From Escherichia phage pro147, in the sequence record NC_028896.1: a stretch of 32,675 nt of DNA; one strand, given 5' to 3'. A model generated the notes under the pieces. That model saw nothing but the letters and a program-made list of their open reading frames with translations. It had not been told where the DNA came from and did not search any database. The translations under genes were made by a program, and so were the position numbers. Of this stretch, positions 16,463-32,675 are shown piece after piece. Every line of letters starts with the position of its first letter. Position 1 is the first letter of the stretch.

Positions 16463-17206
16463 TTAACTGGCTTTCTTTTTCGGGCGTCCACGTTTTGCCG
16501 GTGTCACGCTCCGGGTCTTACGCGGGGCGCGGGTGGCCGCTTTGGGCTGCGGCTCCGGCTTCGGTTTCAGCTCCCGCTCCAGTCGTTCAATCTCTTTTTT
16601 GACACCTGCCTGACAGTCGAGCTGTGTCGCACGTTGCAGGTGAGCCAGCGCACCGGCGGCATCACCACCATCACGCAGAAGCAGACCGGTGATTTTGTGC
16701 AGCTTTGCGCGCACTTCATCAGGCATGTCAGCCGTGGCGGTCAGTTCAAGGGTCTCCGTCAGCAGGCGGGTATCCACAGACTCACCGGCAGCGTGGGCGC
16801 GCATGGCCGCTAGCGCCACCTCCTCGGTGAACATGTATGGCGGGGTGCGGCGGTGTTTACCCGGCATGGTCAGACCGTACTTCAGGGCATAACGGGCAAT
16901 CTCCAGCGCACCGCTAATATCGCCGGTATCCAGACGCCACAGCATGACCGTCATCAGAATGTCATCCTGTGCACCTTTGCCCTGCTCCAGCACGCCGTTC
17001 ACCCACGGCAACCAGAACGGCAGCAGTTCGCGTTTTTTCGCGGCCTTCAGCTCTTTTGAATAAATCGCTTTCAGTGTGCGCTGGTCTGCGGCGAGCTTAA
17101 CCAGCATCTGCTCATAGACAGTTGCATGTCGCAGCGGGGCGGCTTCCCGCTGCGCGGTCATCGCTGCCGAGACCCGCATCATGTGGCGCTGTGCGGGACT
17201 CGTCAT
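16463..17206 (-). CDS. M: Terminase endonuclease (small) subunit M, 247 aa
   Basis: 247-aa ORF between N and L with a basic C-terminal tail; matches P2 gpM length and position. Confidence 0.9.
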   Translation of the reverse strand: MTSPAQRHMMRVSAAMTAQREAAPLRHATVYEQMLVKLAADQRTLKAIYSKELKAAKKRELLPFWLPWVNGVLEQGKGAQDDILMTVMLWRLDTGDISGALEIARYALKYGLTMPGKHRRTPPYMFTEEVALAAMRAHAAGESVDTRLLTETLELTATADMPDEVRAKLHKITGLLLRDGGDAAGALAHLQRATQLDCQAGVKKEIERLERELKPKPEPQPKAATRAPRKTRSVTPAKRGRPKKKAS

Positions 17207-19196: not shown

Positions 19197-19369
19197 TGTC
19201 AGGAGTCCTGAATAGTGATTAGAGGAGTCACATGTCGGCATCAGTTTCCCGACGATACGCATCCTCCGCCATCAGTCCCGGATGGCTTATCACTGACACA
19301 ACAGCACCTTAGCGAATCGCGGGGCGCGACTCAGTAGCCTTGCCGTGTATTCATCACGGCGAGGTATTC
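19197..19369. promoter_or_regulatory. Divergent late promoter region between O and P (expected Ogr-dependent promoters)
   Basis: 173-bp intergenic region between the divergently transcribed scaffold and terminase genes. Assigned by synteny with P2; no confident Ogr box could be picked out by eye. Confidence 0.45.
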
Positions 19370-21142
19370 ATGACCATCACCACAGACACCACTCTTTTAC
19401 ACGACCCGCGTCGTCAGGCGGCGCTGCTGTACTGGCAGGGGTTTTCCGTGCCGCAGATTGCCGCCATGTTGCAGATGAAACGCCCGACGGTGCAGAGCTG
19501 GAAACAGCGCGACGGCTGGGACAGCGTTGCCCCCATCAGCCGTGTCGAAATGAGTCTGGAAGCGCGGCTGACCCAGCTCATCATCAAACCGCAGAAAACC
19601 GGCGGTGACTTCAAGGAAATTGACCTGCTGGGACGTCAGATTGAACGACTGGCACGGGTCAACCGCTACAGTCAGACCGGCAACGAGGCAGACCTTAATC
19701 CGAACGTCGCTAACCGCAACAAAGGCGGGCGTCGCAAACCGAAAAAGAATTTTTTCAGTGACGAGGCCATCGAAAAGCTGGAGCAGATTTTCTTTGAGCA
19801 GTCTTTCGAATATCAGTTGCACTGGTATCGCGCCGGGCTTGAGCACCGCATCCGCGATATCCTGAAATCCCGCCAGATTGGCGCGACGTTTTATTTTTCC
19901 CGCGAGGCGCTGCTGCGCGCCCTGAAAACCGGTCATAACCAGATTTTTCTGTCGGCCAGTAAAACGCAGGCGTATGTGTTCCGCGAATACATCATCGCCT
20001 TTGCCCGGCTGGTTGACGTTGACCTGACCGGTGACCCGATTGTCCTGGGCAATAACGGCGCAAAACTGATTTTTCTCGGCACCAACTCCAACACCGCACA
20101 GAGCCATAACGGCGACCTGTACGTCGACGAGATTTTCTGGATCCCGAATTTTCAGGTACTGCGTAAGGTGGCATCAGGTATGGCCTCACAGAGTCACCTG
20201 CGCTCGACCTATTTCTCCACCCCGTCCACGCTGGCGCACGACGCCTACCCGTTCTGGTCGGGTGAACTGTTCAACCGGGGACGCGCCAGCGCCGCCGAAC
20301 GCGTGGAAATCGACGTCAGTCATAACGCCCTTGCCGGAGGTCTTCTCTGTGCGGACGGCCAGTGGCGGCAGATTGTCACCATTGAGGACGCCCTGAAAGG
20401 CGGCTGCACGCTGTTCGACATTGAGCAGCTCAAACGTGAAAACAGCGCCGACGATTTTAAAAACCTGTTCATGTGTGAATTTGTTGACGACAAGGCGTCG
20501 GTGTTCCCGTTCGAGGAGCTGCAACGTTGCATGGTCGACACGCTGGAAGAATGGGAAGACTATGCGCCGTTTGCCGCAAATCCGTTCGGCTCCCGCCCGG
20601 TATGGATTGGTTACGACCCGTCACACCGTGGCGACAGCGCCGGATGCGTGGTACTGGCACCGCCGGTGGTGGCCGGTGGCAAATTCAGAATACTTGAGCG
20701 TCACCAGTGGAAAGGCATGGACTTTGCCACCCAGGCGGAATCCATCCGCAAACTCACCGAAAAATATAACGTTGAATACATCGGGATTGATGCCACCGGC
20801 CTCGGTGTCGGCGTGTTCCAGCTCGTGCGCTCGTTCTATCCCGCCGCGCGCGATATCCGCTACACGCCGGAAATGAAAACCGCAATGGTGCTCAAGGCAA
20901 AAGACGTTATCCGCCGTGGCTGTCTGGAATATGACGTCAGCGCCACCGACATCACCAGCTCGTTTATGGCTATCCGCAAGACCATGACCAGCAGCGGACG
21001 CAGCGCCACCTATGAGGCCAGCCGCAGCGAGGAAGCCAGCCACGCCGATCTCGCCTGGGCGACTATGCACGCCCTGTTAAATGAGCCACTCACCGCCGGT
21101 ATCAGCACCCCGCTGACATCCACCATTCTGGAGTTTTACTGA
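19370..21142 (+). CDS. P: Terminase ATPase (large) subunit P, 590 aa
   Basis: Translation from the ATG at 19370 (preceded by GAGGT) gives 590 aa starting MTITTDTTLLHDP...; divergent from O as in P2. Confidence 0.92.
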   Translation: MTITTDTTLLHDPRRQAALLYWQGFSVPQIAAMLQMKRPTVQSWKQRDGWDSVAPISRVEMSLEARLTQLIIKPQKTGGDFKEIDLLGRQIERLARVNRYSQTGNEADLNPNVANRNKGGRRKPKKNFFSDEAIEKLEQIFFEQSFEYQLHWYRAGLEHRIRDILKSRQIGATFYFSREALLRALKTGHNQIFLSASKTQAYVFREYIIAFARLVDVDLTGDPIVLGNNGAKLIFLGTNSNTAQSHNGDLYVDEIFWIPNFQVLRKVASGMASQSHLRSTYFSTPSTLAHDAYPFWSGELFNRGRASAAERVEIDVSHNALAGGLLCADGQWRQIVTIEDALKGGCTLFDIEQLKRENSADDFKNLFMCEFVDDKASVFPFEELQRCMVDTLEEWEDYAPFAANPFGSRPVWIGYDPSHRGDSAGCVVLAPPVVAGGKFRILERHQWKGMDFATQAESIRKLTEKYNVEYIGIDATGLGVGVFQLVRSFYPAARDIRYTPEMKTAMVLKAKDVIRRGCLEYDVSATDITSSFMAIRKTMTSSGRSATYEASRSEEASHADLAWATMHALLNEPLTAGISTPLTSTILEFY

Positions 21143-22161
21143 TGAGTAAGAAAAAAGGGAAAACACCGCAGCCAGCGGTGAAAACAATGACTGCCAGCGC
21201 CCCGAAAATGGAGGCATTCACCTTTGGTGAGCCGGTGCCGGTACTCGACCGCCGTGATATTCTGGATTACGTCGAGTGCATCAGTAACGGCAGATGGTAT
21301 GAGCCACCGGTCAGCTTTACCGGTCTGGCAAAAAGCCTGCGTGCTGCCGTGCATCACAGCTCACCGATTTACGTTAAACGCAATATTCTGGCTTCAACGT
21401 TTATCCCGCACCCGTGGCTGTCCCAGCAGGATTTCAGCCGCTTTGTGCTGGATTTTCTGGTGTTCGGTAATGCGTTTCTGGAAAAGCGTTACAGCACCAC
21501 CGGTAAGGTCATCAGACTGGAAACCTCACCGGCAAAATATACCCGCCGTGGCGTGGAGGAGGATGTTTACTGGTGGGTGCCGTCCTTCAACGAGCCGACA
21601 GCCTTCGCGCCCGGCTCCGTGTTTCACCTGCTGGAGCCGGATATCAATCAGGAGCTGTACGGCCTGCCGGAATATCTCAGCGCCCTTAACTCTGCCTGGC
21701 TGAATGAGTCGGCCACGCTGTTCCGCCGCAAGTATTACGAAAACGGCGCTCATGCCGGATACATCATGTATGTCACCGATGCCGTGCAGGATCGCAACGA
21801 TATCGAAATGCTTCGCGAAAACATGGTTAAGTCGAAAGGCCGCAACAACTTTAAAAACCTGTTTCTCTATGCCCCACAGGGGAAAGCCGACGGCATTAAA
21901 ATTATCCCCCTCAGTGAAGTGGCGACGAAGGACGATTTTTTTAATATCAAAAAAGTCAGCGCCGCAGATCTCCTGGACGCACACCGCATCCCCTTTCAGT
22001 TGATGGGCGGTAAGCCGGAGAATGTCGGGTCACTAGGAGATATTGAAAAAGTGGCAAAGGTCTTTGTCCGCAATGAACTCATTCCATTACAGGAGAGAAT
22101 AAAGTCAATAAATGAATGGTTAGATATGGAAGTAATAAAATTCCTTGATTATAACTTATAA
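21142..22161 (+). CDS. Q: Portal protein Q, 339 aa (3' end AT-rich and apparently remodelled)
   Basis: 339-aa ORF overlapping the P stop (TGATG); position matches P2 gpQ. The last ~25 codons (22081-22161) are abruptly AT-rich, continuous with the downstream cargo island. Confidence 0.88.
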   Translation: MSKKKGKTPQPAVKTMTASAPKMEAFTFGEPVPVLDRRDILDYVECISNGRWYEPPVSFTGLAKSLRAAVHHSSPIYVKRNILASTFIPHPWLSQQDFSRFVLDFLVFGNAFLEKRYSTTGKVIRLETSPAKYTRRGVEEDVYWWVPSFNEPTAFAPGSVFHLLEPDINQELYGLPEYLSALNSAWLNESATLFRRKYYENGAHAGYIMYVTDAVQDRNDIEMLRENMVKSKGRNNFKNLFLYAPQGKADGIKIIPLSEVATKDDFFNIKKVSAADLLDAHRIPFQLMGGKPENVGSLGDIEKVAKVFVRNELIPLQERIKSINEWLDMEVIKFLDYNL

Positions 22162-22173
22162 GTAAATATATAA

Positions 22174-22200
22174 AGTTGGCGGAATGCAATCCCGCCAACT
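22174..22200. terminator. Hairpin between convergent Q and the retron-operon effector gene
   Basis: Perfect 9-bp stem agttggcgg (22174-22182) / ccgccaact (22192-22200) with 9-nt loop, filling the 42-bp gap between two convergent stop codons. Confidence 0.6.
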
Positions 22201-22203
22201 TAA

Positions 22204-22911
22204 CTATATATACTTCCTTTTTACTCTACTTAATTCTATCACTGATGAGGAGTGACAAAATGACAAATTAATAGTATCGATATAATCCAAAATTTGACTC
22301 TCAACCTCAATAAAAATATTTTTGGGCCCATTACTAATCGATATACCGATTTCATCCAAAACAGCCATCATTTTTCTCTGATGAGTTTTATATTTATAGT
22401 CTTTATTTTCCTCTGTAATATGTGCATTGGCTTCCTCAATAACACATTTGATTCTAGATATTATTTCTAGATAATCTCTCGAAACAGATATATCACCGCC
22501 TTGCGCTTCAGGGAACATAACCCTATACCATCTAAAAAAATTAACTTTCTCTGGATAGATGCTACTTCTTTTAGTTAACTCAGCACTTGCAAATTCTCTA
22601 AACATCGTCAGATGACTAGTGTAATTACTATTATTATTATTTTTAACTCCAGCGTTATATGTCATCAAAGCAATCATAACACCAAAAACGGTAACAAAAG
22701 TTGTTATAAGCCATCCAAACGCCTGAAAATACATTACTATACCAGATGTTTTTTCCGCAAAAAATTTTAAGCACTGGCTATCGAAGCATATATCACGCTC
22801 ATATAGCTTTTCATTCTGAATAGTTTCAAAAAGAGAAATTAGCGAAAAAATCAAAAAAAGAGCTGACGACACACCGACAATATATTTGAGAAGTCTAATA
22901 TTTGCATTCAT
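22204..22911 (-). CDS. Putative retron effector: 235-aa protein with two N-terminal transmembrane helices
   Basis: AT-rich ORF overlapping the 3' end of the upstream reverse-transcriptase gene by 4 nt. Hydrophobic segments YIVGVSSALFLIFSLISLF and VMYFQAFGWLITTFVTVFGVMIALMTY, followed by a ~140-aa soluble C-terminal domain. Confidence 0.7.
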   Translation of the reverse strand: MNANIRLLKYIVGVSSALFLIFSLISLFETIQNEKLYERDICFDSQCLKFFAEKTSGIVMYFQAFGWLITTFVTVFGVMIALMTYNAGVKNNNNSNYTSHLTMFREFASAELTKRSSIYPEKVNFFRWYRVMFPEAQGGDISVSRDYLEIISRIKCVIEEANAHITEENKDYKYKTHQRKMMAVLDEIGISISNGPKNIFIEVESQILDYIDTINLSFCHSSSVIELSRVKRKYI

Positions 22912-24182
22912 AATGGTTTTAAAGATGCCAATCTAGATTTAAAACACTCCAGTTTTTCTTTAAATGATTCAGAGCGAGTAAGAATAATCATCTTATATCT
23001 CGTCAAATCATATTTTCTTTTATACCAATGTTTATTTTGATTACCTTTCGAATACGACAACTCTAAACTTTTTATAGCTGCATCAATCACAGCAACATCT
23101 CTTTTAGATGGCATCGGTTTTATTGCCTGCAACTGTTTCTTGAATGATTCATATTTTTCATGCGCAACACGGCCAAGCTTATTCACTCTCCCCATACATC
23201 TATTGAATTCTTTTCTGTATGCAACACTTGTTTTTGTGTTATTTTTTGCCGCCAGTAATTTCAAATTATGTATAGATGCCCTGATTCTTTTGACTTCATC
23301 GGATGGTAGTCGAGGTGAGTCATAGTCAACTCTTAAACCATGTACTTTTATAGGTTCAGATGAACAGTGAAATATTTTAGTTTTGCGCTTATTTATCGGC
23401 AAGTCATGCTCAGAAAGCATCCTCTCTATATGGCTTTGCATTTGAGAAAAATCATAATTACTTATTTTAGATGACACGGTAATATCATCTACCAAACGCG
23501 TATAAACAAGTCCTTTCCTCTGCGCACGTCTTACCACATCCCCTTCAACAGCGAATAAACACAAAGTTGCTATATAGCTTGATGTTAAGGCCCCCTGTAC
23601 GACAAAATCATCCTTAGTACATATATCCACCAAGTATTCAAGAGCCTCATCCTTAATATGCAATATCTCCTCAAACACGCTCCTAACCAGATCTCTATGG
23701 ATATTATCGAAAAAATTACTTATATCCACCTTGAGAACTGTTTTTGCTCCACAATGAGCCTTTGCACATGAAACATAGTCACGTTTGACATTAGAATTTA
23801 AAACATCATTTTTACTGGGAACTGAACCAAACAAAAATGAAGGAAAAACAACCAATTCCTTAAAGATACGTTTATTAATTCTACTCTGTAATAATCTCAT
23901 TTTAGGATGCAGGGAGTAGACAATCCGTTTGCTTCCGTCAATTTTGGGAATTTCTTTTAGAGTATATTTCTCATCTAATGGTAATTCTGCAATAGCTTTA
24001 AGCTCTTCAACAGAAATCGATAAAGCCTTTGACAACTTTTCAAGTGTTGTGATAGGAGCATTGGATTTGCTGTATGGTTTAAATTTATCCATAAACATAC
24101 CATTCAAATTCAAAGTTACGTACGGTCTTCCCATACTCAAGGGTGGAACAGCAGAGATGCTTACATCAACAATTGTCAGCAA
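22908..24182 (-). CDS. Retron-type reverse transcriptase (start uncertain: TTG 24182, ATG 24134 or ATG 24098)
   Basis: Translation shows the RT motifs ...CAKAHCGAKTVLKVDISNFFDNI..., ...QGALTSSYIATLCL..., ...YTRLVDDITV... (YxDD box) and a VHGL motif resembling the retron VTG signature. AT-rich; the TTG at 24180-24182 is preceded by AGAGG. Confidence 0.8.
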   Translation of the reverse strand: MLTIVDVSISAVPPLSMGRPYVTLNLNGMFMDKFKPYSKSNAPITTLEKLSKALSISVEELKAIAELPLDEKYTLKEIPKIDGSKRIVYSLHPKMRLLQSRINKRIFKELVVFPSFLFGSVPSKNDVLNSNVKRDYVSCAKAHCGAKTVLKVDISNFFDNIHRDLVRSVFEEILHIKDEALEYLVDICTKDDFVVQGALTSSYIATLCLFAVEGDVVRRAQRKGLVYTRLVDDITVSSKISNYDFSQMQSHIERMLSEHDLPINKRKTKIFHCSSEPIKVHGLRVDYDSPRLPSDEVKRIRASIHNLKLLAAKNNTKTSVAYRKEFNRCMGRVNKLGRVAHEKYESFKKQLQAIKPMPSKRDVAVIDAAIKSLELSYSKGNQNKHWYKRKYDLTRYKMIILTRSESFKEKLECFKSRLASLKPL

Positions 24183-24423
24183 CAGCCTCTGCTATCTTTC
24201 GACCGTACGTAATGTCGTCGGCTACGGCACCATCGTAGTTGACGACGGTGGGGCCTCGCTGATAGGTCCATAGTGGACGCTTTTTTGTAAAAGCAAAAAC
24301 TGACAATTTAATGTTGTTGACTGCCGCATACCAAGCGAATCGCTGGTGCGCTAAGAATAATGCAACAAAAAAATAAGAATTTCAACCGGGTAACTGCAAG
24401 CCAGCGACATCGTTTAGCGCGCA
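24183..24423 (-). ncRNA. Candidate retron non-coding RNA (msr/msd) in the structured leader upstream of the RT gene
   Basis: GC-rich non-coding stretch between cos and the RT with a nested hairpin gtcgtc-gg-ctacg-gcaccat-cgtag-tt-gacgac (24214-24246) and a 12-nt inverted repeat ttacgtacggtc (24116-24127) / gaccgtacgtaa (24201-24212). Exact msr/msd boundaries could not be determined. Confidence 0.3.
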
Positions 24424-24442
24424 GTGCTTTCCCCGCCTCGCC
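24424..24442 (-). other. cos: Phage cos site: 19-nt cohesive-end sequence GGCGAGGCGGGGAAAGCAC (minus-strand sense)
   Basis: Plus strand 24424-24442 reads gtgctttccccgcctcgcc, the reverse complement of the P2 cohesive end as recalled; followed by ...ctgcgcgct as at the P2 left end. Adjacent GC hairpin ccgccc (24442-24447) / gggcgg (24456-24461) plus tttt. Confidence 0.75.
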
Positions 24443-24648
24443 CGCCCGCTTCATGGGGCGGTTTTAATGCAGTAGCATGACCACTCAACTAGCGCGCCAG
24501 TCCTGATGTCGCCAGGCAGTTATTGTTCTCTGACTTGCGTGCGCTTCGATGCAGAGTAATGCACTTCCTGAATTGCTCGCATTCGCATCGTTATCATGAT
24601 AGAAAACAGGTAGTTATTTGTGCGCAACTTAAGAAGAAATCACTAATT

Positions 24649-26193
24649 ATGAAAAAGATTTATGAATTAACTACTGGTAGAGCGCTTAAGTATTTTCTGC
24701 AGCATGATTCATACACTACTCTGGAGCTACCCAGTTATGTCGATTTTTCTTCCTTGCTTGAAGAAATCAACTCCGCGATAGATGAAGGTAAAATCAACTT
24801 CCAACCTGACTCCAAGTCATTGATGGGGAAGAATATAAATTACGAGGTTTTAGTCAGCAAAGATGGCTTATATAGCTGGCGACGAATAACACTAATTAAT
24901 CCTCTGTACTACGTGTATTTTTGTAAACTTATTACATCCCCTTCCAACTGGAAGGCTATAAAGAATAAATTTAGAGAGTTTGAGTCTAATGATCTTTTTT
25001 TATGCTCAAGTACCCCAGTGAGCAAAAAGAACACCTCAAACGTAGCTGCATCTGTTTTAAACTGGTGGGAAGATTTTGAACAAAAAAGTCTTTCATTGGC
25101 TCTTGAGTATGAGTTCATGTTCAGCACAGATATTTCAAACTTCTACCCTTCTATTTACACTCATAGCTTTGAATGGGTATTCATCTCAAAAGAAGAGGCC
25201 AAAAAGAAAGAAAATAACAATAACCCAGGACGATTGATTGACACTCATATCCAGATGATGATGAGTAATCAGACAAACGGAATACCATTGGGTAGTACGT
25301 TGATGGATACATTTGCCGAATTAATTTTAGGCGAAATTGATTTACAGCTAAGAAAAAAAACTGAAGAGCAAAAAATAACGGATTACAAAGTAGTTCGCTA
25401 CAGAGATGATTATCGAATATTTTCAAGCAGTAAAGATGATTTGGACAAAATCTCAAAGTGTTTGGTTGAGGTCTTAGGTGAGTTTGGGCTTGATTTAAAC
25501 TCAAGAAAAACAGAACTACATGACGACATCATTCTTCACTCTCTTAAATCAGCAAAAAAAGAATATATTATAGAAAGGTCGTTCAACTCCCTACAGAAAA
25601 TGTTGTATGCAATATATTTATTTTCTTTAAAACATCAAAACTCCAAAATTACAGTTAGATATTTAAATGATTTCTTGCGAAAATTATTTAGGAAGAAAAA
25701 GATCACAAATAGTGGGCATCAACTAGATGCAATGCTTGGAATTATTTCAAGCATCATGGCTAAAAACCCAACCACCTACCCAGTGGGAATGGCTATTTTC
25801 GCAAAACTCTTGACCTTCCTTTATGACGACGATGAACTCAAATTTGGCAAGTTACAACAACTTCATTGTAAACTAGGTAAACAACCAAATACTGAAATGT
25901 TAGATATTTGGTTTCAACGAGTTCAAGGGAAGATACACACACAATGGGAAGGCGATTACAAAACAGCCCTATGTCAACGCATAAATGATGAACTCAAGGG
26001 AAAAAAAACATTTACCATTGATGGCCTGTGGGATGTAGAGTGGATTCCGGGCTCAGCCAAAAGTAAAAACAAACAGAAAATACTATCAATTTTGAAAAAA
26101 ACAAAAATTGTGGATTTAGATGCATTCGAAGAAATGGATAATGATATTACACCAGAAGAAGTGAACTTATTCGACAAGGAACACAGCGCTTAA
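24649..26193 (+). CDS. Abi-P2-like (Abi/UG-class) reverse transcriptase, single-gene anti-phage system, 514 aa (alternative start ATG 24559)
   Basis: AT-rich ORF in the tin/old cargo position. RT motifs ...FSTDISNFYPSIYTH..., ...NGIPLGSTLMDTFAEL..., ...VVRYRDDYRIFS..., followed by a long C-terminal extension with no recognisable effector domain. No adjacent partner gene. Confidence 0.75.
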   Translation: MKKIYELTTGRALKYFLQHDSYTTLELPSYVDFSSLLEEINSAIDEGKINFQPDSKSLMGKNINYEVLVSKDGLYSWRRITLINPLYYVYFCKLITSPSNWKAIKNKFREFESNDLFLCSSTPVSKKNTSNVAASVLNWWEDFEQKSLSLALEYEFMFSTDISNFYPSIYTHSFEWVFISKEEAKKKENNNNPGRLIDTHIQMMMSNQTNGIPLGSTLMDTFAELILGEIDLQLRKKTEEQKITDYKVVRYRDDYRIFSSSKDDLDKISKCLVEVLGEFGLDLNSRKTELHDDIILHSLKSAKKEYIIERSFNSLQKMLYAIYLFSLKHQNSKITVRYLNDFLRKLFRKKKITNSGHQLDAMLGIISSIMAKNPTTYPVGMAIFAKLLTFLYDDDELKFGKLQQLHCKLGKQPNTEMLDIWFQRVQGKIHTQWEGDYKTALCQRINDELKGKKTFTIDGLWDVEWIPGSAKSKNKQKILSILKKTKIVDLDAFEEMDNDITPEEVNLFDKEHSA

Positions 26194-26293
26194 CGAAACA
26201 ATGTTATTAACTCAACATGACTTCGTTAAGCATTAAAGCGAACAGTCATATGAAATTTCGACATCCCTAACGCCTCGCAAGCTCGTTGTTCAC

Positions 26294-26338
26294 CCCCGCC
26301 AGCACTGAAAGCGAGTTTCAGCGTCGACGGGGTTTTCT
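26294..26338 (+). terminator. Possible intrinsic terminator downstream of the Abi-P2-like RT gene
   Basis: Composite hairpin: outer ccccg (26294-26298) / cgggg (26328-26332), inner ctgaaa (26305-26310) / tttcag (26316-26321), followed by ttttct. Confidence 0.35.
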
Positions 26339-26358
26339 ATGGTCAACGTGGTGACAGA

Positions 26359-26619
26359 TTATGGGCACGCGTGAAGGTAGAAATATGGACGGTTGGGATT
26401 ATTGATTTCTCCCATACGGCTGCAGTTATCACTGACGATCTCAGTCCCTCCGACCAACTCGTAGAGGGTCAGATTCTCTTTGACCATAATTTGTAAACAA
26501 TAGCCATCAGCCGCAGACTCTTGCACGAGTACAATGGCGGAACCGGACGCATAGCTAGTAATGTATGCATTAGTCATAATGACATGCTTCCAAAGCAAGA
26601 TCGCCACGCAGTTCCGCAT
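26359..26619 (-). CDS. Hypothetical 86-aa protein downstream of A (position of P2 orf91)
   Basis: ORF in the track only; sits where P2 carries orf91 but no sequence similarity could be verified from memory. Confidence 0.3.
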   Translation of the reverse strand: MRNCVAILLWKHVIMTNAYITSYASGSAIVLVQESAADGYCLQIMVKENLTLYELVGGTEIVSDNCSRMGEINNPNRPYFYLHACP

Positions 26620-26680
26620 GATCCATCAGTTGCTGATACCAACCATCAAATGGAAGCAAAATCAACCATTTCAATCATTT

Positions 26681-28957
26681 TTATATGTTTGTTGAGAATC
26701 CCGGCCACTCATCAGCGACCGGATACGTGAATTTTTCCCCGTCATAATTTACGGTCGCGCCACGCGCCAGCGCCTCAAGCTCCCATCGCTGTGGCCTGAT
26801 ACCGTTCTGAGCAAGGTCAACGCGGATACGGGTAATTTGCATTCGTTCCGACCGGGTCAGTCTGGCCGATGGCGCTATTTCATGCGGTTTTAACGGGCTT
26901 CCGTTTCTTTGCTGACGGTTTGGTCTTCTCAGACCGTGTTTTAATGCACCTCTGAGCGCCCTCACGACCTCCTGGTCATTCCATTCGATAACACCGTCAT
27001 CTACCAGATTAAGCACTGCTGCGGCGTGCTCAGAAGGTGTGGGAGCCGGTAACGAAGTATCACCACCGGTGAGCTTTCCACAGTTATTGACAGGACTCCG
27101 AGGCGCGGCGATGCCGCTTTTTAAAGTCAAAGGCTCAACGACCAGCACTTTCGGAACAATGCGCCAGTCCGTCGTTCTGGTGATATGAATATGACGCGCG
27201 CCGAGATGCGGCGCGTAAATGCCGACCACTCTCTCGACTTCTTCCTCGTACTCGTTAACTTCATCCGACGGACTACGGGCGACCCTGACAGTCTGACAAT
27301 CGCGCGGGACATTTGCCCCACCCTGCGCGCTGATATACAGCGCAAAATCGCCACTGTCTGCGGCAGCGCGTGCAGCCTCGACGCGTTCGTCAAACTCATC
27401 AGCAATGCTGACGCCGCGAGGTAATTTGCGTAGTTCACGGTAAGCCCCCATTGTCGGCAGGCCAACCGTTTTAAATTGCGGAATGCGCCACGTTGACGCC
27501 CATGCGGTAACAGCCGCGGCAGTGTCTTTCAGCGGCCTGCCGGTATCGTTATCGAGCTGACCATCCAGTGCATAGCCGTCGATGTTTTTTGAAATGTATT
27601 TCGCGATATACCCCGCAGCACCGCCCCGGTTAAGGTGTTTTGCCTGAAAACGGTTTCGCGCGGCTCCTCTTTCGTCGCCATCCTCTTTGAGCGCATAGCG
27701 ACGCATGATTTCGATAATCTGGTTACGCTGGCGCGGATTACAAAAAAGCATCATATGCCAGTGCGGCGTTCCGTCGTGGTGTGGCTCGACGACACGCAAA
27801 CCGTAGACCTGTAAATCATTATCCTTGAATGCCGTGCGCATCAGGCTCCAGATACGGCAGAGATAACGCTGCGCATCCTTTGGATTAAATGCCTCATCGT
27901 TCCAGCCGTGATTTAGCTGGACGGTTTTACTTTCGCCTTTTCTGACCTGACGTGTCGGGTGATACTTTGACGGCGCGGTCAGCGTGATAAACATCCCCAC
28001 ATCACCCTCTGCTGCGGCGTAACGCTCAATACCGGCAATGGTGTTCATCAGCTCCATCCGGCGAATTTCAGGATTAGAAATACTGCCCATCACCTTACTG
28101 ATAAGGTCGATGCGCTCGCCGGTTTCCCTGTTTTCAAGGTCACACGATTTAAGAAATTCCAGATTTGCCTGGCGGCGCGCACGCACATCACGAATGGCAT
28201 GTTTACTGGCATAAGGAGAACGGTCTTTATTGACCTCCCCGACAGCTATCAGTAACGCCTCATGCCAGCGCATACGTTGGCCTTTAAGCTGATGAGTCCA
28301 CCACTCATCGTTAAACAGGCGGGCAATGGCAGAATATGCCTGCCTCGTGGTCATCTGTCCTTTACGGTATTTTTTCCAGTAGAGCGGGGAAATATTGAAA
28401 GCACGTGCAGCGCCAGCAACATGACCATAGAGGTGAGCCTGCGCCTCATCCGTAAACAGCGATTCTTTTTCGCCATGTGCATCAACCCAGGCATCGCAGA
28501 GTTCCTCATACATCATGAAAAGCTGCGATGAGATACGGGCAGCAAACTTTTTCAGCTCCTTGTCATTCATTCCCGGCAGGCGCGCATAGTGGTCACGCTC
28601 TGCCAGAAACAGCAACGACGCGTCGGTGTTCATTTCATGGCGCTGATTCACACGCTCAATGCGCGGCCATAAACGACGCTGAAAAGTGGATGTGAGGAAA
28701 TAAAACCCGTGCACCGGGCTTTTATTGCGCCGGATGTAGTCATAACGTGAAGTAAACAGCGAGCGCAAAAAGTAAGGCAGGCGGTTAATCGTGGATAAAA
28801 CACCTTGCACCTGACGCATCTCGTCACGTGTAAGGGGTCTTTCGCGCCCGACAGCCTCGCGTGGCGCGTTCCATGCATAAGCACCGGTAAACGTCTTACC
28901 GGTGCCTGCGGCAAATGCTGACGGAGGGACAAAACGCCCGGAGGCTTTAACGGCCAT
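26681..28957 (-). CDS. A: Replication initiation protein A (rolling-circle nickase), about 758 aa from ATG 28957
   Basis: Translation from MAVKASGRFVPPSAFAAGTGK... matches the recalled P2 gpA N-terminus. The track ORF starts 14 codons upstream at a TTG (28999). The last few codons lie at the boundary with the cargo island. Confidence 0.9.
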   Translation of the reverse strand: MAVKASGRFVPPSAFAAGTGKTFTGAYAWNAPREAVGRERPLTRDEMRQVQGVLSTINRLPYFLRSLFTSRYDYIRRNKSPVHGFYFLTSTFQRRLWPRIERVNQRHEMNTDASLLFLAERDHYARLPGMNDKELKKFAARISSQLFMMYEELCDAWVDAHGEKESLFTDEAQAHLYGHVAGAARAFNISPLYWKKYRKGQMTTRQAYSAIARLFNDEWWTHQLKGQRMRWHEALLIAVGEVNKDRSPYASKHAIRDVRARRQANLEFLKSCDLENRETGERIDLISKVMGSISNPEIRRMELMNTIAGIERYAAAEGDVGMFITLTAPSKYHPTRQVRKGESKTVQLNHGWNDEAFNPKDAQRYLCRIWSLMRTAFKDNDLQVYGLRVVEPHHDGTPHWHMMLFCNPRQRNQIIEIMRRYALKEDGDERGAARNRFQAKHLNRGGAAGYIAKYISKNIDGYALDGQLDNDTGRPLKDTAAAVTAWASTWRIPQFKTVGLPTMGAYRELRKLPRGVSIADEFDERVEAARAAADSGDFALYISAQGGANVPRDCQTVRVARSPSDEVNEYEEEVERVVGIYAPHLGARHIHITRTTDWRIVPKVLVVEPLTLKSGIAAPRSPVNNCGKLTGGDTSLPAPTPSEHAAAVLNLVDDGVIEWNDQEVVRALRGALKHGLRRPNRQQRNGSPLKPHEIAPSARLTRSERMQITRIRVDLAQNGIRPQRWELEALARGATVNYDGEKFTYPVADEWPGFSTNI

Positions 28958-29222
28958 ATGAGCCAAAAGCCTCTGAACAACGCCTGCTGAGTTGCTCAAC
29001 CTGCGCGTTTAAATCAGCAAAAGACTTTGCGCTTCCGGTCAGAATATCGTGATGCATCAGGCCGGAAACGAGCTGGCTTAATTTCGGGTAATAACCAACC
29101 ACCGCCAGCCATTCCTGACCGGCGTTTTTACCGCTTTCCGCTCTCTTTTTCTCGTGGAGAATAAACTGAAAGCTGTCACTGGTAACGACATAACGTTTGC
29201 CAATTTCAATACGAATGCTCAT
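28947..29222 (-). CDS. Early-operon hypothetical protein (P2 orf83 position), 91 aa
   Basis: ATG-initiated ORF immediately upstream of A, overlapping its start by 11 nt; syntenic with P2 orf83. Confidence 0.7.
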   Translation of the reverse strand: MSIRIEIGKRYVVTSDSFQFILHEKKRAESGKNAGQEWLAVVGYYPKLSQLVSGLMHHDILTGSAKSFADLNAQVEQLSRRCSEAFGSYGR

Positions 29223-31576: not shown

Positions 31577-32572
31577 ATGTCTATTAAAAAGCTCGATGAT
31601 GGTCGTTATGAAGTGGACGTCAGACCGCAGGGTGCAGATGGAAAACGTATCAGGCGGAAATTTAAAACTAAAGGTGAAGCTCAAGCATTCGAACGTCATG
31701 TGCTGGTTAACTACCACAACAAAGAGTGGCTGGAGAAGCCAGCCGACCGCCGAACTCTTACAGAGTTGTTAGGCAGATGGTGGATATATCACGGAAAATC
31801 ACATGAGCGTGGAAATATTGAACGGGGGCGTTTGACGACAATAATCGCCAAATTTGCAGAAATGGGAGTGTCCAGAGCTGACCAGTTAACAAAGAAAACG
31901 ATAACTGATTATCGAGTTGTAATGATGAACGATGGTCTAAAACCAGCCAGCGTAAATCGGCATCTGGCAATAATGAGCGGGATGTTCACCAAGTTAATTG
32001 ACGCCGGTGAATACCACTCTCACAACCCGTTCCGTGAGGTTAAGCGGTTACGTGAAGCTGTTACAGAAATGGCTTTTTTGTCCAGTGAAGAGATTACGCG
32101 GCTGTTATCCATGCTTGATGGTGATGAGTTAAATGCAACTCTGGTCTGCCTTTCTACTGGTGGACGCTGGAGTGAAGTGTCTAATTTGAAAGCTGAACAC
32201 ATCATTAACCAGATGGTTACGTTTATGAAAACTAAAAACGGAAAGCGCAGGACAATTCCCGTTTCGCAGGACCTGATTAAAAGGATCAAGACCAAAAATT
32301 CAGGCAGGCTTTTTAATGCCAGTTACTACAAAGTGCGTAACGCTCTCAGGGAAGTAAAACCCGATTTACCTGACGGACAAGCAGTACATGTTTTGAGGCA
32401 TACATTTGCCACACATTTTATAATGAATGGAGGTAACATAATCACATTGCAGCGCATCCTGGGTCATTCTAACATTCAGCAAACTATGACCTACGCACAC
32501 TTTGCACCGGATTTCTTACAAGATGCTGTGACTCTTAACCCAGTGTCAGGAATGTCCATAATGCGTCCATAA
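31577..32572 (+). CDS. int: Tyrosine integrase, 331 aa
   Basis: Terminal gene next to the right repeat; C-terminal catalytic region contains ...RHTFATHFIMNGGNIITLQRILGHSNIQQTMTYAHF... (R...HxxR...Y tyrosine recombinase pattern). Confidence 0.92.
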   Translation: MSIKKLDDGRYEVDVRPQGADGKRIRRKFKTKGEAQAFERHVLVNYHNKEWLEKPADRRTLTELLGRWWIYHGKSHERGNIERGRLTTIIAKFAEMGVSRADQLTKKTITDYRVVMMNDGLKPASVNRHLAIMSGMFTKLIDAGEYHSHNPFREVKRLREAVTEMAFLSSEEITRLLSMLDGDELNATLVCLSTGGRWSEVSNLKAEHIINQMVTFMKTKNGKRRTIPVSQDLIKRIKTKNSGRLFNASYYKVRNALREVKPDLPDGQAVHVLRHTFATHFIMNGGNIITLQRILGHSNIQQTMTYAHFAPDFLQDAVTLNPVSGMSIMRP

Positions 32573-32662: not shown

Positions 32663-32675
32663 GTCAGTTATTGGT
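32663..32675. repeat. Right copy of 13-bp terminal direct repeat gtcagttattggt; candidate att core
   Basis: Identical to bases 1-13; lies 91 bp downstream of the integrase stop. Confidence 0.55.

Follow-up and report, generated by a model that had tools for sequence, protein, structure and literature searches.

A P2-type cos site flanked by a retron and Abi-P2 in an Escherichia prophage, and a possible one-sided array of ATGCA boxes beside it

The DNA examined here, referred to as the window, is a 32,675-nucleotide stretch of Escherichia phage pro147 (sequence record NC_028896.1). A 13-bp att core, GTCAGTTATTGGT, is present at both of its ends (1-13 on the plus strand, with the second copy at 32663-32675), and these identical termini indicate that the window is a whole prophage running from att to att, with an excised genome of 32,662 bp, or 97% of the length of P2; no tRNA was found at att. 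The small terminase gpM is encoded on the minus strand at 16463-17206 (Pfam Phage_term_smal, 3.5e-48), and the plus strand carries the large terminase gpP at 19340-21142 (Pfam Terminase_6N, Terminase_6C and Terminase_5, with an N-terminal HTH domain) and the portal gpQ at 21142-22161 (Pfam Phage_portal, sharing 96-100% identity with the portals found in P2-like loci), these last two genes spanning 19340-22161. Gene A lies at 26681-28999 on the minus strand, ogr at 128-409 and int at 31577-32572, and the window also encodes D, capsid N, scaffold O and cox. The window is a complete P2-EC58-like Peduovirus prophage, and the same element that carries the cos site described below encodes the cognate terminase pair, gpP and gpM.

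Between Q and A the window carries two defence systems, one on either side of cos. On the Q side, a retron of the Ec48 family is encoded on the minus strand by a two-transmembrane effector at 22204-22911 (PADLOC 2TM_IV, 4.1e-85; PGAP product name 'retron Ec48 family effector membrane protein') and a type IV reverse transcriptase at 22908-24092 (PADLOC RT_IV, 1.4e-176; Pfam RVT_1), the latter being the first gene inside the left virion end. A terminator with a 13-bp stem separates the convergent Q and effector genes at 22173-22201, the position equivalent to that of the annotated P2 tQ; this hairpin is probably bidirectional and substitutes an unrelated sequence for tQ. The 331-bp non-coding gap from the start of the retron reverse transcriptase to cos contains a promoter-like site on the minus strand (24385-24357) and a 13-nt inverted repeat (24214-24246), and 24093-24385 on the same strand, judged by retron architecture, presumably holds the retron promoter and the msr-msd RNA. 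An Rfam E-value search of 22000-27000 returned no match, with neither the cos-adjacent hairpin nor the retron RNA falling in a known RNA family. On the A side, the Abi-P2 polymerase (P2-EC58 ORF544) is encoded on the plus strand at 24649-26193 and adjoins the right virion end; its PADLOC match (AbiP2, 4.7e-160) spans 43-554, and at the DNA level it shares 99.6% identity with the start of P2-EC58 ORF544 (AM157368). The PGAP starts of the two polymerase genes, 24092 and 24649, place cos inside a 556-bp divergent intergenic region that is wholly non-coding. Mechanical ORF calls that begin at TTG codons (24523-26193 from TTG 24523 and 22908-24182 from TTG 24182) overcall both of these RT-family genes. 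The initial annotation had placed two reverse transcriptase systems at the termini of the packaged genome, and both the Q-side retron and the A-side Abi-P2 are indeed there, but Abi-P2, although a member of the RT superfamily, is a DNA polymerase that is protein-primed and template-independent rather than a templated reverse transcriptase (PMC9508834).

The cos site itself is unambiguous in the sequence. The 19-nt cohesive end GGCGAGGCGGGGAAAGCAC occurs without mismatch on the minus strand at 24424-24442 and is the sole match in the window at up to three mismatches, where 0.01 would be expected by chance, so that the match is far beyond chance. The same 19 nucleotides are annotated in P2 (NC_001895) as cosL (1-19) and cosR (33575-33593), and alignment of the two cos regions revealed identity over the 19-mer and, apart from one loop base, over the whole of -8 to +29 (minus positions are counted leftwards from 24423 and plus positions rightwards from 24443); the right end of P2 reads ...GCATTAAAACCGCCCCgTGAAGCGGGCGG|GGCGAGG, the same element as that of the window but for this loop base. 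From -8 to +32 the window also agrees with the consensus of P2, P4, 186 and PSP3 and with that of 70 cross-genus sites, and its similarity to 99 phage records is limited to about 24416-24486. Cos stands between Q and A, as in P2-like genomes, and the gene order implies a virion chromosome of the form Q...ogr-att-int...A, so that both the cohesive end and the packaging order proposed from the sequence at the outset were borne out. P2, P4 and their relatives have a common 55-bp conserved cos core (PMC5694545, PMC3931495), and P2 cos was the subject of work by Padmanabhan, Wu & Calendar (1974) and Ziermann & Calendar (1990), which we cite as it is represented in PMC3931495 and PMC5694545. In literature citing Ziermann & Calendar 1990 or using P2/P4 cosmids we found no detail on the fine structure of cos, and a 2026 paper on P2-like diversity does not discuss cos.

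We then compared the surroundings of cos in two sets of loci. The close set comprised 80 P2-like loci drawn from IMG/VR via the portal protein, and the cross-genus set comprised 80 loci from Enterobacterales, one genome per species, with portal identities of 67-96%; in 76 of these latter loci cos lies downstream of Q. Counted from coordinates, the interval between Q and cos carries cargo in 8 of 79 close E. coli-type loci (L004-L083) as against about 34 of 76 loci from other Enterobacterales (L092-L171), which makes this side of cos a frequent hotspot in species other than E. coli. Three cross-genus loci, L093, L096 and L147, consist of P2-like prophage DNA of enterobacterial type (portal identity 74-95%, with a typical cos) and come from assemblies labelled as a Bacillota MAG, Vagococcus sp. 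and Chryseobacterium sp., most likely through contamination or mis-binning.

Conservation around cos is confined to discrete blocks. Across 61 distinct E. coli-type flanks, mean pairwise identity was 0.96 at -8 to -1, 0.99 over the 19-mer and 0.94 at +1 to +12, fell to 0.76 at +13 to +19, recovered to 0.86 at +20 to +36 (TTTTAATGCAGnTGCAT) and dropped to 0.33 at +37 to +95. On the Q side, GCGCGCA next to cos is retained in every locus, including those in which cargo has replaced the Q-cos interval, and wherever cargo is inserted conservation ends at -8, with no further conserved Q-side element surviving cargo replacement. The only conserved sequence on this side is thus the plus-strand segment AGCGCGCA^G at 24416-24423, which has a counterpart on the minus strand at 24443-24450, AGCGGGCG^G, the latter being near-invariant in the 84 E. 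coli-type and 76 cross-genus sites. Read 5' to 3', either strand has AGCG(C/G)GC(A/G) directly before its putative nick and G directly after it (AGCGCGCA^GTGC on the plus and AGCGGGCG^GGCG on the minus strand). When applied to the alignment of 71 sequences, RNAalifold paired GCGCGC (-7 to -2) with GCCCGC (+2 to +7), two (near-)invariant segments that flank the 19 nucleotides; the left segment pairs with 24444-24449 as an inverted repeat in all 71 sequences, and the columns are invariant in alignment A2. The 8 bp on either side of the 19-mer are therefore probably rotationally symmetric nick half-sites, as judged from their sequence and invariance. Two further repeats were noted near the core: a third half-site-like copy, TAGCGCGC, at 24490-24497 (+48 to +55), 75 bp to the right of the left copy, and an 8-bp perfect inverted repeat, GCGACATC/GATGTCGC, at 24404-24411 and 24505-24512, which encloses the cos core. 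Of the 133 distinct flanks, 33 have a related motif, C(C/A)AG-N2-4-CTG(G/A), near +51.

Beyond the right half-site, on the A side, a variable 7-nt spacer (24455-24461, +13 to +19; 20 variants in E. coli-type loci) leads into a proximal box, TTTTAATGCAGTAGCAT, at 24462-24478 (+20 to +36), which is conserved in alignments A1 and A2. Its first ten positions (+20 to +29) form a TTTTAATGCA box that starts with a T-tract and includes a first ATGCA at 24467-24471, found at +25 in 128 of 133 distinct flanks. A spacer at 24479-24538 (+37 to +96), fixed in length and free in sequence, separates this box from a set of phased ATGCA repeats at 24539-24563, which in the window read GTGCG at +97 (24539-24543, degenerate), ATGCA at +107 (24549-24553) and ATGCA at +117 (24559-24563). 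Across flanks ATGCA is repeated at +97 and +107, with a third and less strictly placed copy at +117 to +120, and the repeats start at +96 to +98 in 55 of 61 distinct E. coli-type flanks and at +96 or +97 in 68 of 76 cross-genus sites. Allowing at most one mismatch per box, we observed ATGCA-N5-ATGCA between +60 and +160 in 60 of the 61 distinct E. coli-type flanks versus 6 of 61 in a control window, and in 71 of 76 cross-genus sites (start at +85 to +110) versus none of 76. An unbiased positional 5-mer scan of the 133 distinct flanks recovered only +1 to +12, +16 to +35, +95 to +100 and +106 to +110. Measured from the +25 ATGCA, the distal boxes are 72, 82 and 92 bp away, distances that would place them on one helical face. 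We also considered a lambda-like I1 (IHF) site, which was rejected: the consensus WATCAANNNNTTR had only two matches in the 133 distinct right flanks and none in the cos spacer.

The distal repeats could instead be a conserved promoter or operator for the hotspot cargo that forms no part of cos, which of the alternatives weighed here fares best and is nevertheless unlikely. It draws on P2, where the third box overlaps the -35 element of old (TTGAAT), as placed by reading upstream of the annotated transcription start sites at 33424/33426, and on a similar CTGAAT-18-TATCAT arrangement in the window at 24568-24597. However, the repeats occur as often beside a gene that runs toward cos (60 of 65) as beside one that runs away from it (49 of 54), in about 90% of distinct flanks either way; they stand at the same distances in P2, P4, 186 and PSP3, even though in P4 they lie 3' of psu and in 186 3' of orf97/t95b, where an outward promoter would be unexpected; and their distance from the nick stays fixed across a spacer of about 33% identity. 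In addition, cosmids with longer flanks round the 55-bp core are transduced by P2 about 10^4-fold better (PMC9594776). On account of this independence of orientation, we have largely rejected a cargo promoter as the explanation of the distal repeats, although packaging signal and cargo promoter may share bases. The CTGAAT-18-TATCAT sequence at 24568-24597, with a counterpart at 33452-33480 in P2 (L001), could separately be the Abi-P2 promoter.

A slightly smaller chance attaches to the idea that the prophage is defective and has ceased to be packaged, cos being a relic. In its favour, one distal box is degenerate in the window, and +31 to +35 reads AGCAT where TGCAT is usual; together these two departures suggest that packaging efficiency could be lower than that of P2. 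Against this, all packaging and morphogenesis genes that we checked are full length, terminase, portal, capsid, scaffold, int, cox, ogr and A are intact, as are the att repeats, and the genome approaches the length of P2. Furthermore, of 5426 complete E. coli genomes, 42, which come from varied hosts, contain the identical junction (2135 genomes show a match to part of the query), and P2-EC58 has been catalogued among the P2-like phages. By its gene content, then, the prophage is probably packaging-competent.

The hairpin beside cos was evaluated both as a structure and across relatives. CCGCCC at 24442-24447 pairs with GGGCGG at 24456-24461 around the loop 24448-24455, and TTTT follows at 24462-24465; the reported 6-bp stem with its 8-nt loop is thus present on the plus strand at 24442-24461, as it is in P2 and P4, but it overlaps cos by one nucleotide rather than merely following it, because C24442, the first base of the stem, is the last base of the 19-mer. 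The initial annotation had read this element as a possible terminator shielding cos. As a working intrinsic terminator on the plus strand it would block read-through, for example from the late P-Q operon, across cos into Abi-P2. The hairpin does fit a simple intrinsic-terminator consensus (six G-C pairs, a loop of eight and TTTT, then AATG), folds with a minimum free energy of -13.6 kcal/mol and has the identical orientation in P2, where it lies between tQ and the old promoter. On the other side, just four U follow the stem, and its stability is not beyond chance in the window, with z = -1.7 for a 33-nt segment and z = -0.6 for a 56-nt context against dinucleotide shuffles; a simple terminator scan over 5 kb returned 10 motifs versus 3.6 +/- 2.3 in shuffles. 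We found no plus-strand transcription unit ending near the motif: the nearest upstream gene, Q, ends at 22161, 2.26 kb from the hairpin, with its own strong terminator, and the intervening 22204-24092 codes for the retron on the opposite strand. The P2 and 186 records likewise annotate no terminator at the motif.

Comparative analysis of the stem pointed the same way. Among the 84 E. coli-type sites its 5' arm has two forms, CCGCCC (77 sites) and CTGCCC (7 sites), whereas the 3' arm has 20 variants there and is hypervariable across genera. All six pairs are kept in only 37 of 84 E. coli-type and 11 of 76 cross-genus sites (4 of 76 if Watson-Crick pairs alone are counted), the stem being broken in 47 close and 65 distant relatives without compensation. 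Among 53 distinct E. coli-type sequences we observed no compensatory pair, four of the six stem pairs departed by mispairs only, and 85.8% of cells were paired, equal to the shuffle mean of 85.8%; in the cross-genus alignment there was again no compensated pair, with 72.5% of cells paired versus 72.4% in shuffles, and RNAalifold, run on 71 aligned sequences, did not recover the reported hairpin. The common GGGTCGG variant of the 3' arm can give a wobble-rich stem in a shifted register (-9.1 kcal/mol), which we did not count as conservation because stem energies spread from -13.6 to -3.8 and followed no pattern that would point to their being maintained. By contrast, TTTT follows the stem position in 80 of 84 E. 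coli-type sites and in at least 90% of the cross-genus alignment, and is kept even at sites with a broken stem. Retention of a T-tract next to a decaying stem is not the signature of a terminator, and the shielding role proposed for the hairpin is therefore highly doubtful. From these sequence comparisons, the invariance of the 5' arm is explained by five of its six bases being the right half-site of the symmetric pair, the stem appears to be an incidental palindrome of this half-site and the poorly constrained 7-nt spacer, and the TTTT appears to belong to the proximal box.

The least probable alternative, by a hair, is that the CCGCCC-N8-GGGCGG repeat is itself recognised by terminase, as a cruciform or a symmetric dimer site: the repeat does lie inside the conserved 55-bp core and is perfect in P2 and P4, which are served by one common terminase, but its arms are unequally conserved (the 5' arm invariant, the 3' arm with at least 20 variants), 186, PSP3 and most other genera do without the repeat and share all the rest, and phiCTX has no such repeat. 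The suggestion that the hairpin belongs to a terminase recognition element therefore survives for its bases, which lie inside the conserved cos core with the sequences of the 5' arm and T-tract preserved, and fails for the stem as a structure, although the stem is perfect in P2 and P4, whose cos has been functionally tested, and may contribute in those lineages.

Collectively, these observations make it very likely that the segment from 24416 to about 24563 is cos, the site of DNA maturation and packaging, in an intact P2-EC58-like Peduovirus prophage. In the mechanism that we propose, excision at the 13-bp att repeats would yield a 32.66-kb circle, which terminase, composed of gpP as the large and gpM as the small subunit, would nick at 24423|24424 on the plus strand and at 24442|24443 on the minus strand, 19 bp apart. 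Such staggered nicks would leave 19-nt 5' overhangs of the P2 type and a virion chromosome ordered retron-Q-P...ogr-att-int...A-AbiP2. Recognition would be strongly asymmetric, in that the Q side would need nothing past 8 bp while the A side would supply the TTTTAATGCA box, then the spacer of fixed length and then two to three ATGCA boxes at +97, +107 and +117. We infer from their conservation that the distal boxes may form a terminase-binding array like lambda cosB, with terminase positioned by binding this one-sided A-side array; gpP, by virtue of its HTH domain, and gpM, as the small subunit, are the candidate binders.

More tentatively, cos of the P2 family as a whole might be a one-sided tripartite site of about 150 bp, made up of AGCGSGCR^G half-sites, the TTTTAATGCA box and an ATGCA triplet exactly seven, eight and nine helical turns away from this box, a possibility to which we give rather less than even weight. 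If so, the triplet would be held in place by a spacer constrained in length and free in sequence, terminase would wrap or loop about 100 bp on the A side only, and the layout would set sharp inner boundaries to the two cargo hotspots at -8 and about +125. Should the distal array and its phasing be previously undescribed, they would be a modest addition to the biology of P2 packaging and would supply rules for the design of P2/P4 cosmids. The left boundary at -8 and the phased boxes from +97 to +121 amount to testable rules for the flanks required in a P2/P4 cosmid or a cargo swap, and they could explain the roughly 10^4-fold gap between short- and long-flank cosmids (PMC9594776). Apart from this, the identity of cos, the packaging order and the two flanking RT-family systems are already known biology, and to find them here relocates a textbook element and changes little; its practical value is that it fixes the predicted virion ends.

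The position of the two defence systems is also in keeping with what is described for related elements. Odegrip et al. (2006) reportedly found a reverse transcriptase in this variable P2 locus. The gpA-gpQ interval of P2 and P4 is a cos-adjacent defence hotspot with swappable anti-phage systems that include retrons (Rousset et al. 2022, PMC9122126), and the window does not differ from it in substance, offering one more arrangement in which a system stands on each side of cos; that both systems directly abut the minimal cos fits the published idea of a cos-adjacent hotspot for cargo exchange. In 186-type prophages retrons replace the DNA between cos and the portal-gene terminator (Dodd & Egan 1996, as cited in PMC5694545), and the window likewise has its retron exactly there, with the cos core and distal boxes conserved; 186, however, has a cohesive end with 2 differences in its 19 positions, mismatched arms (CTGCCC / GGTCGG) in place of the stem and a retron of a different family.

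P2 itself shares with the window the CCGCCC/GGGCGG palindrome, the TTTTAATGCA box and the location of cos between Q and A, and it has ATGCA boxes at +97, +107 and about +118, the first of which is the degenerate one in the window. Cos lies 186 bp from Q in P2, with tQ between, whereas in the window a 2.2-kb Ec48-family retron replaces this interval up to -8, and the A-side cargo is old/tin in P2 and Abi-P2 in the window. The satellite P4, which is packaged by the P2 terminase (PMC9122126), has the same 19 nucleotides, palindrome, proximal box and distal ATGCA boxes at the same distances as the window, but it lacks structural genes and has its hotspot on the other side of cos, and its second and third distal boxes form the stem of the probable psu terminator. 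In Pseudomonas phiCTX there is an analogous T-tract, with CTGCA at +24 and CTGCG/CTGCA at +79, +95 and +105, and no hairpin. Lambda cos combines a rotationally symmetric cosN, nicked in a staggered manner at its half-sites, with one-sided terminase-binding repeats in cosB. The cos site of the window resembles it in layout, with symmetric half-sites and a one-sided repeat array, but has no sequence similarity to it; the overhang is 19 nt in the P2 type as opposed to 12 nt in lambda, and the P2 terminase proteins belong to different families.
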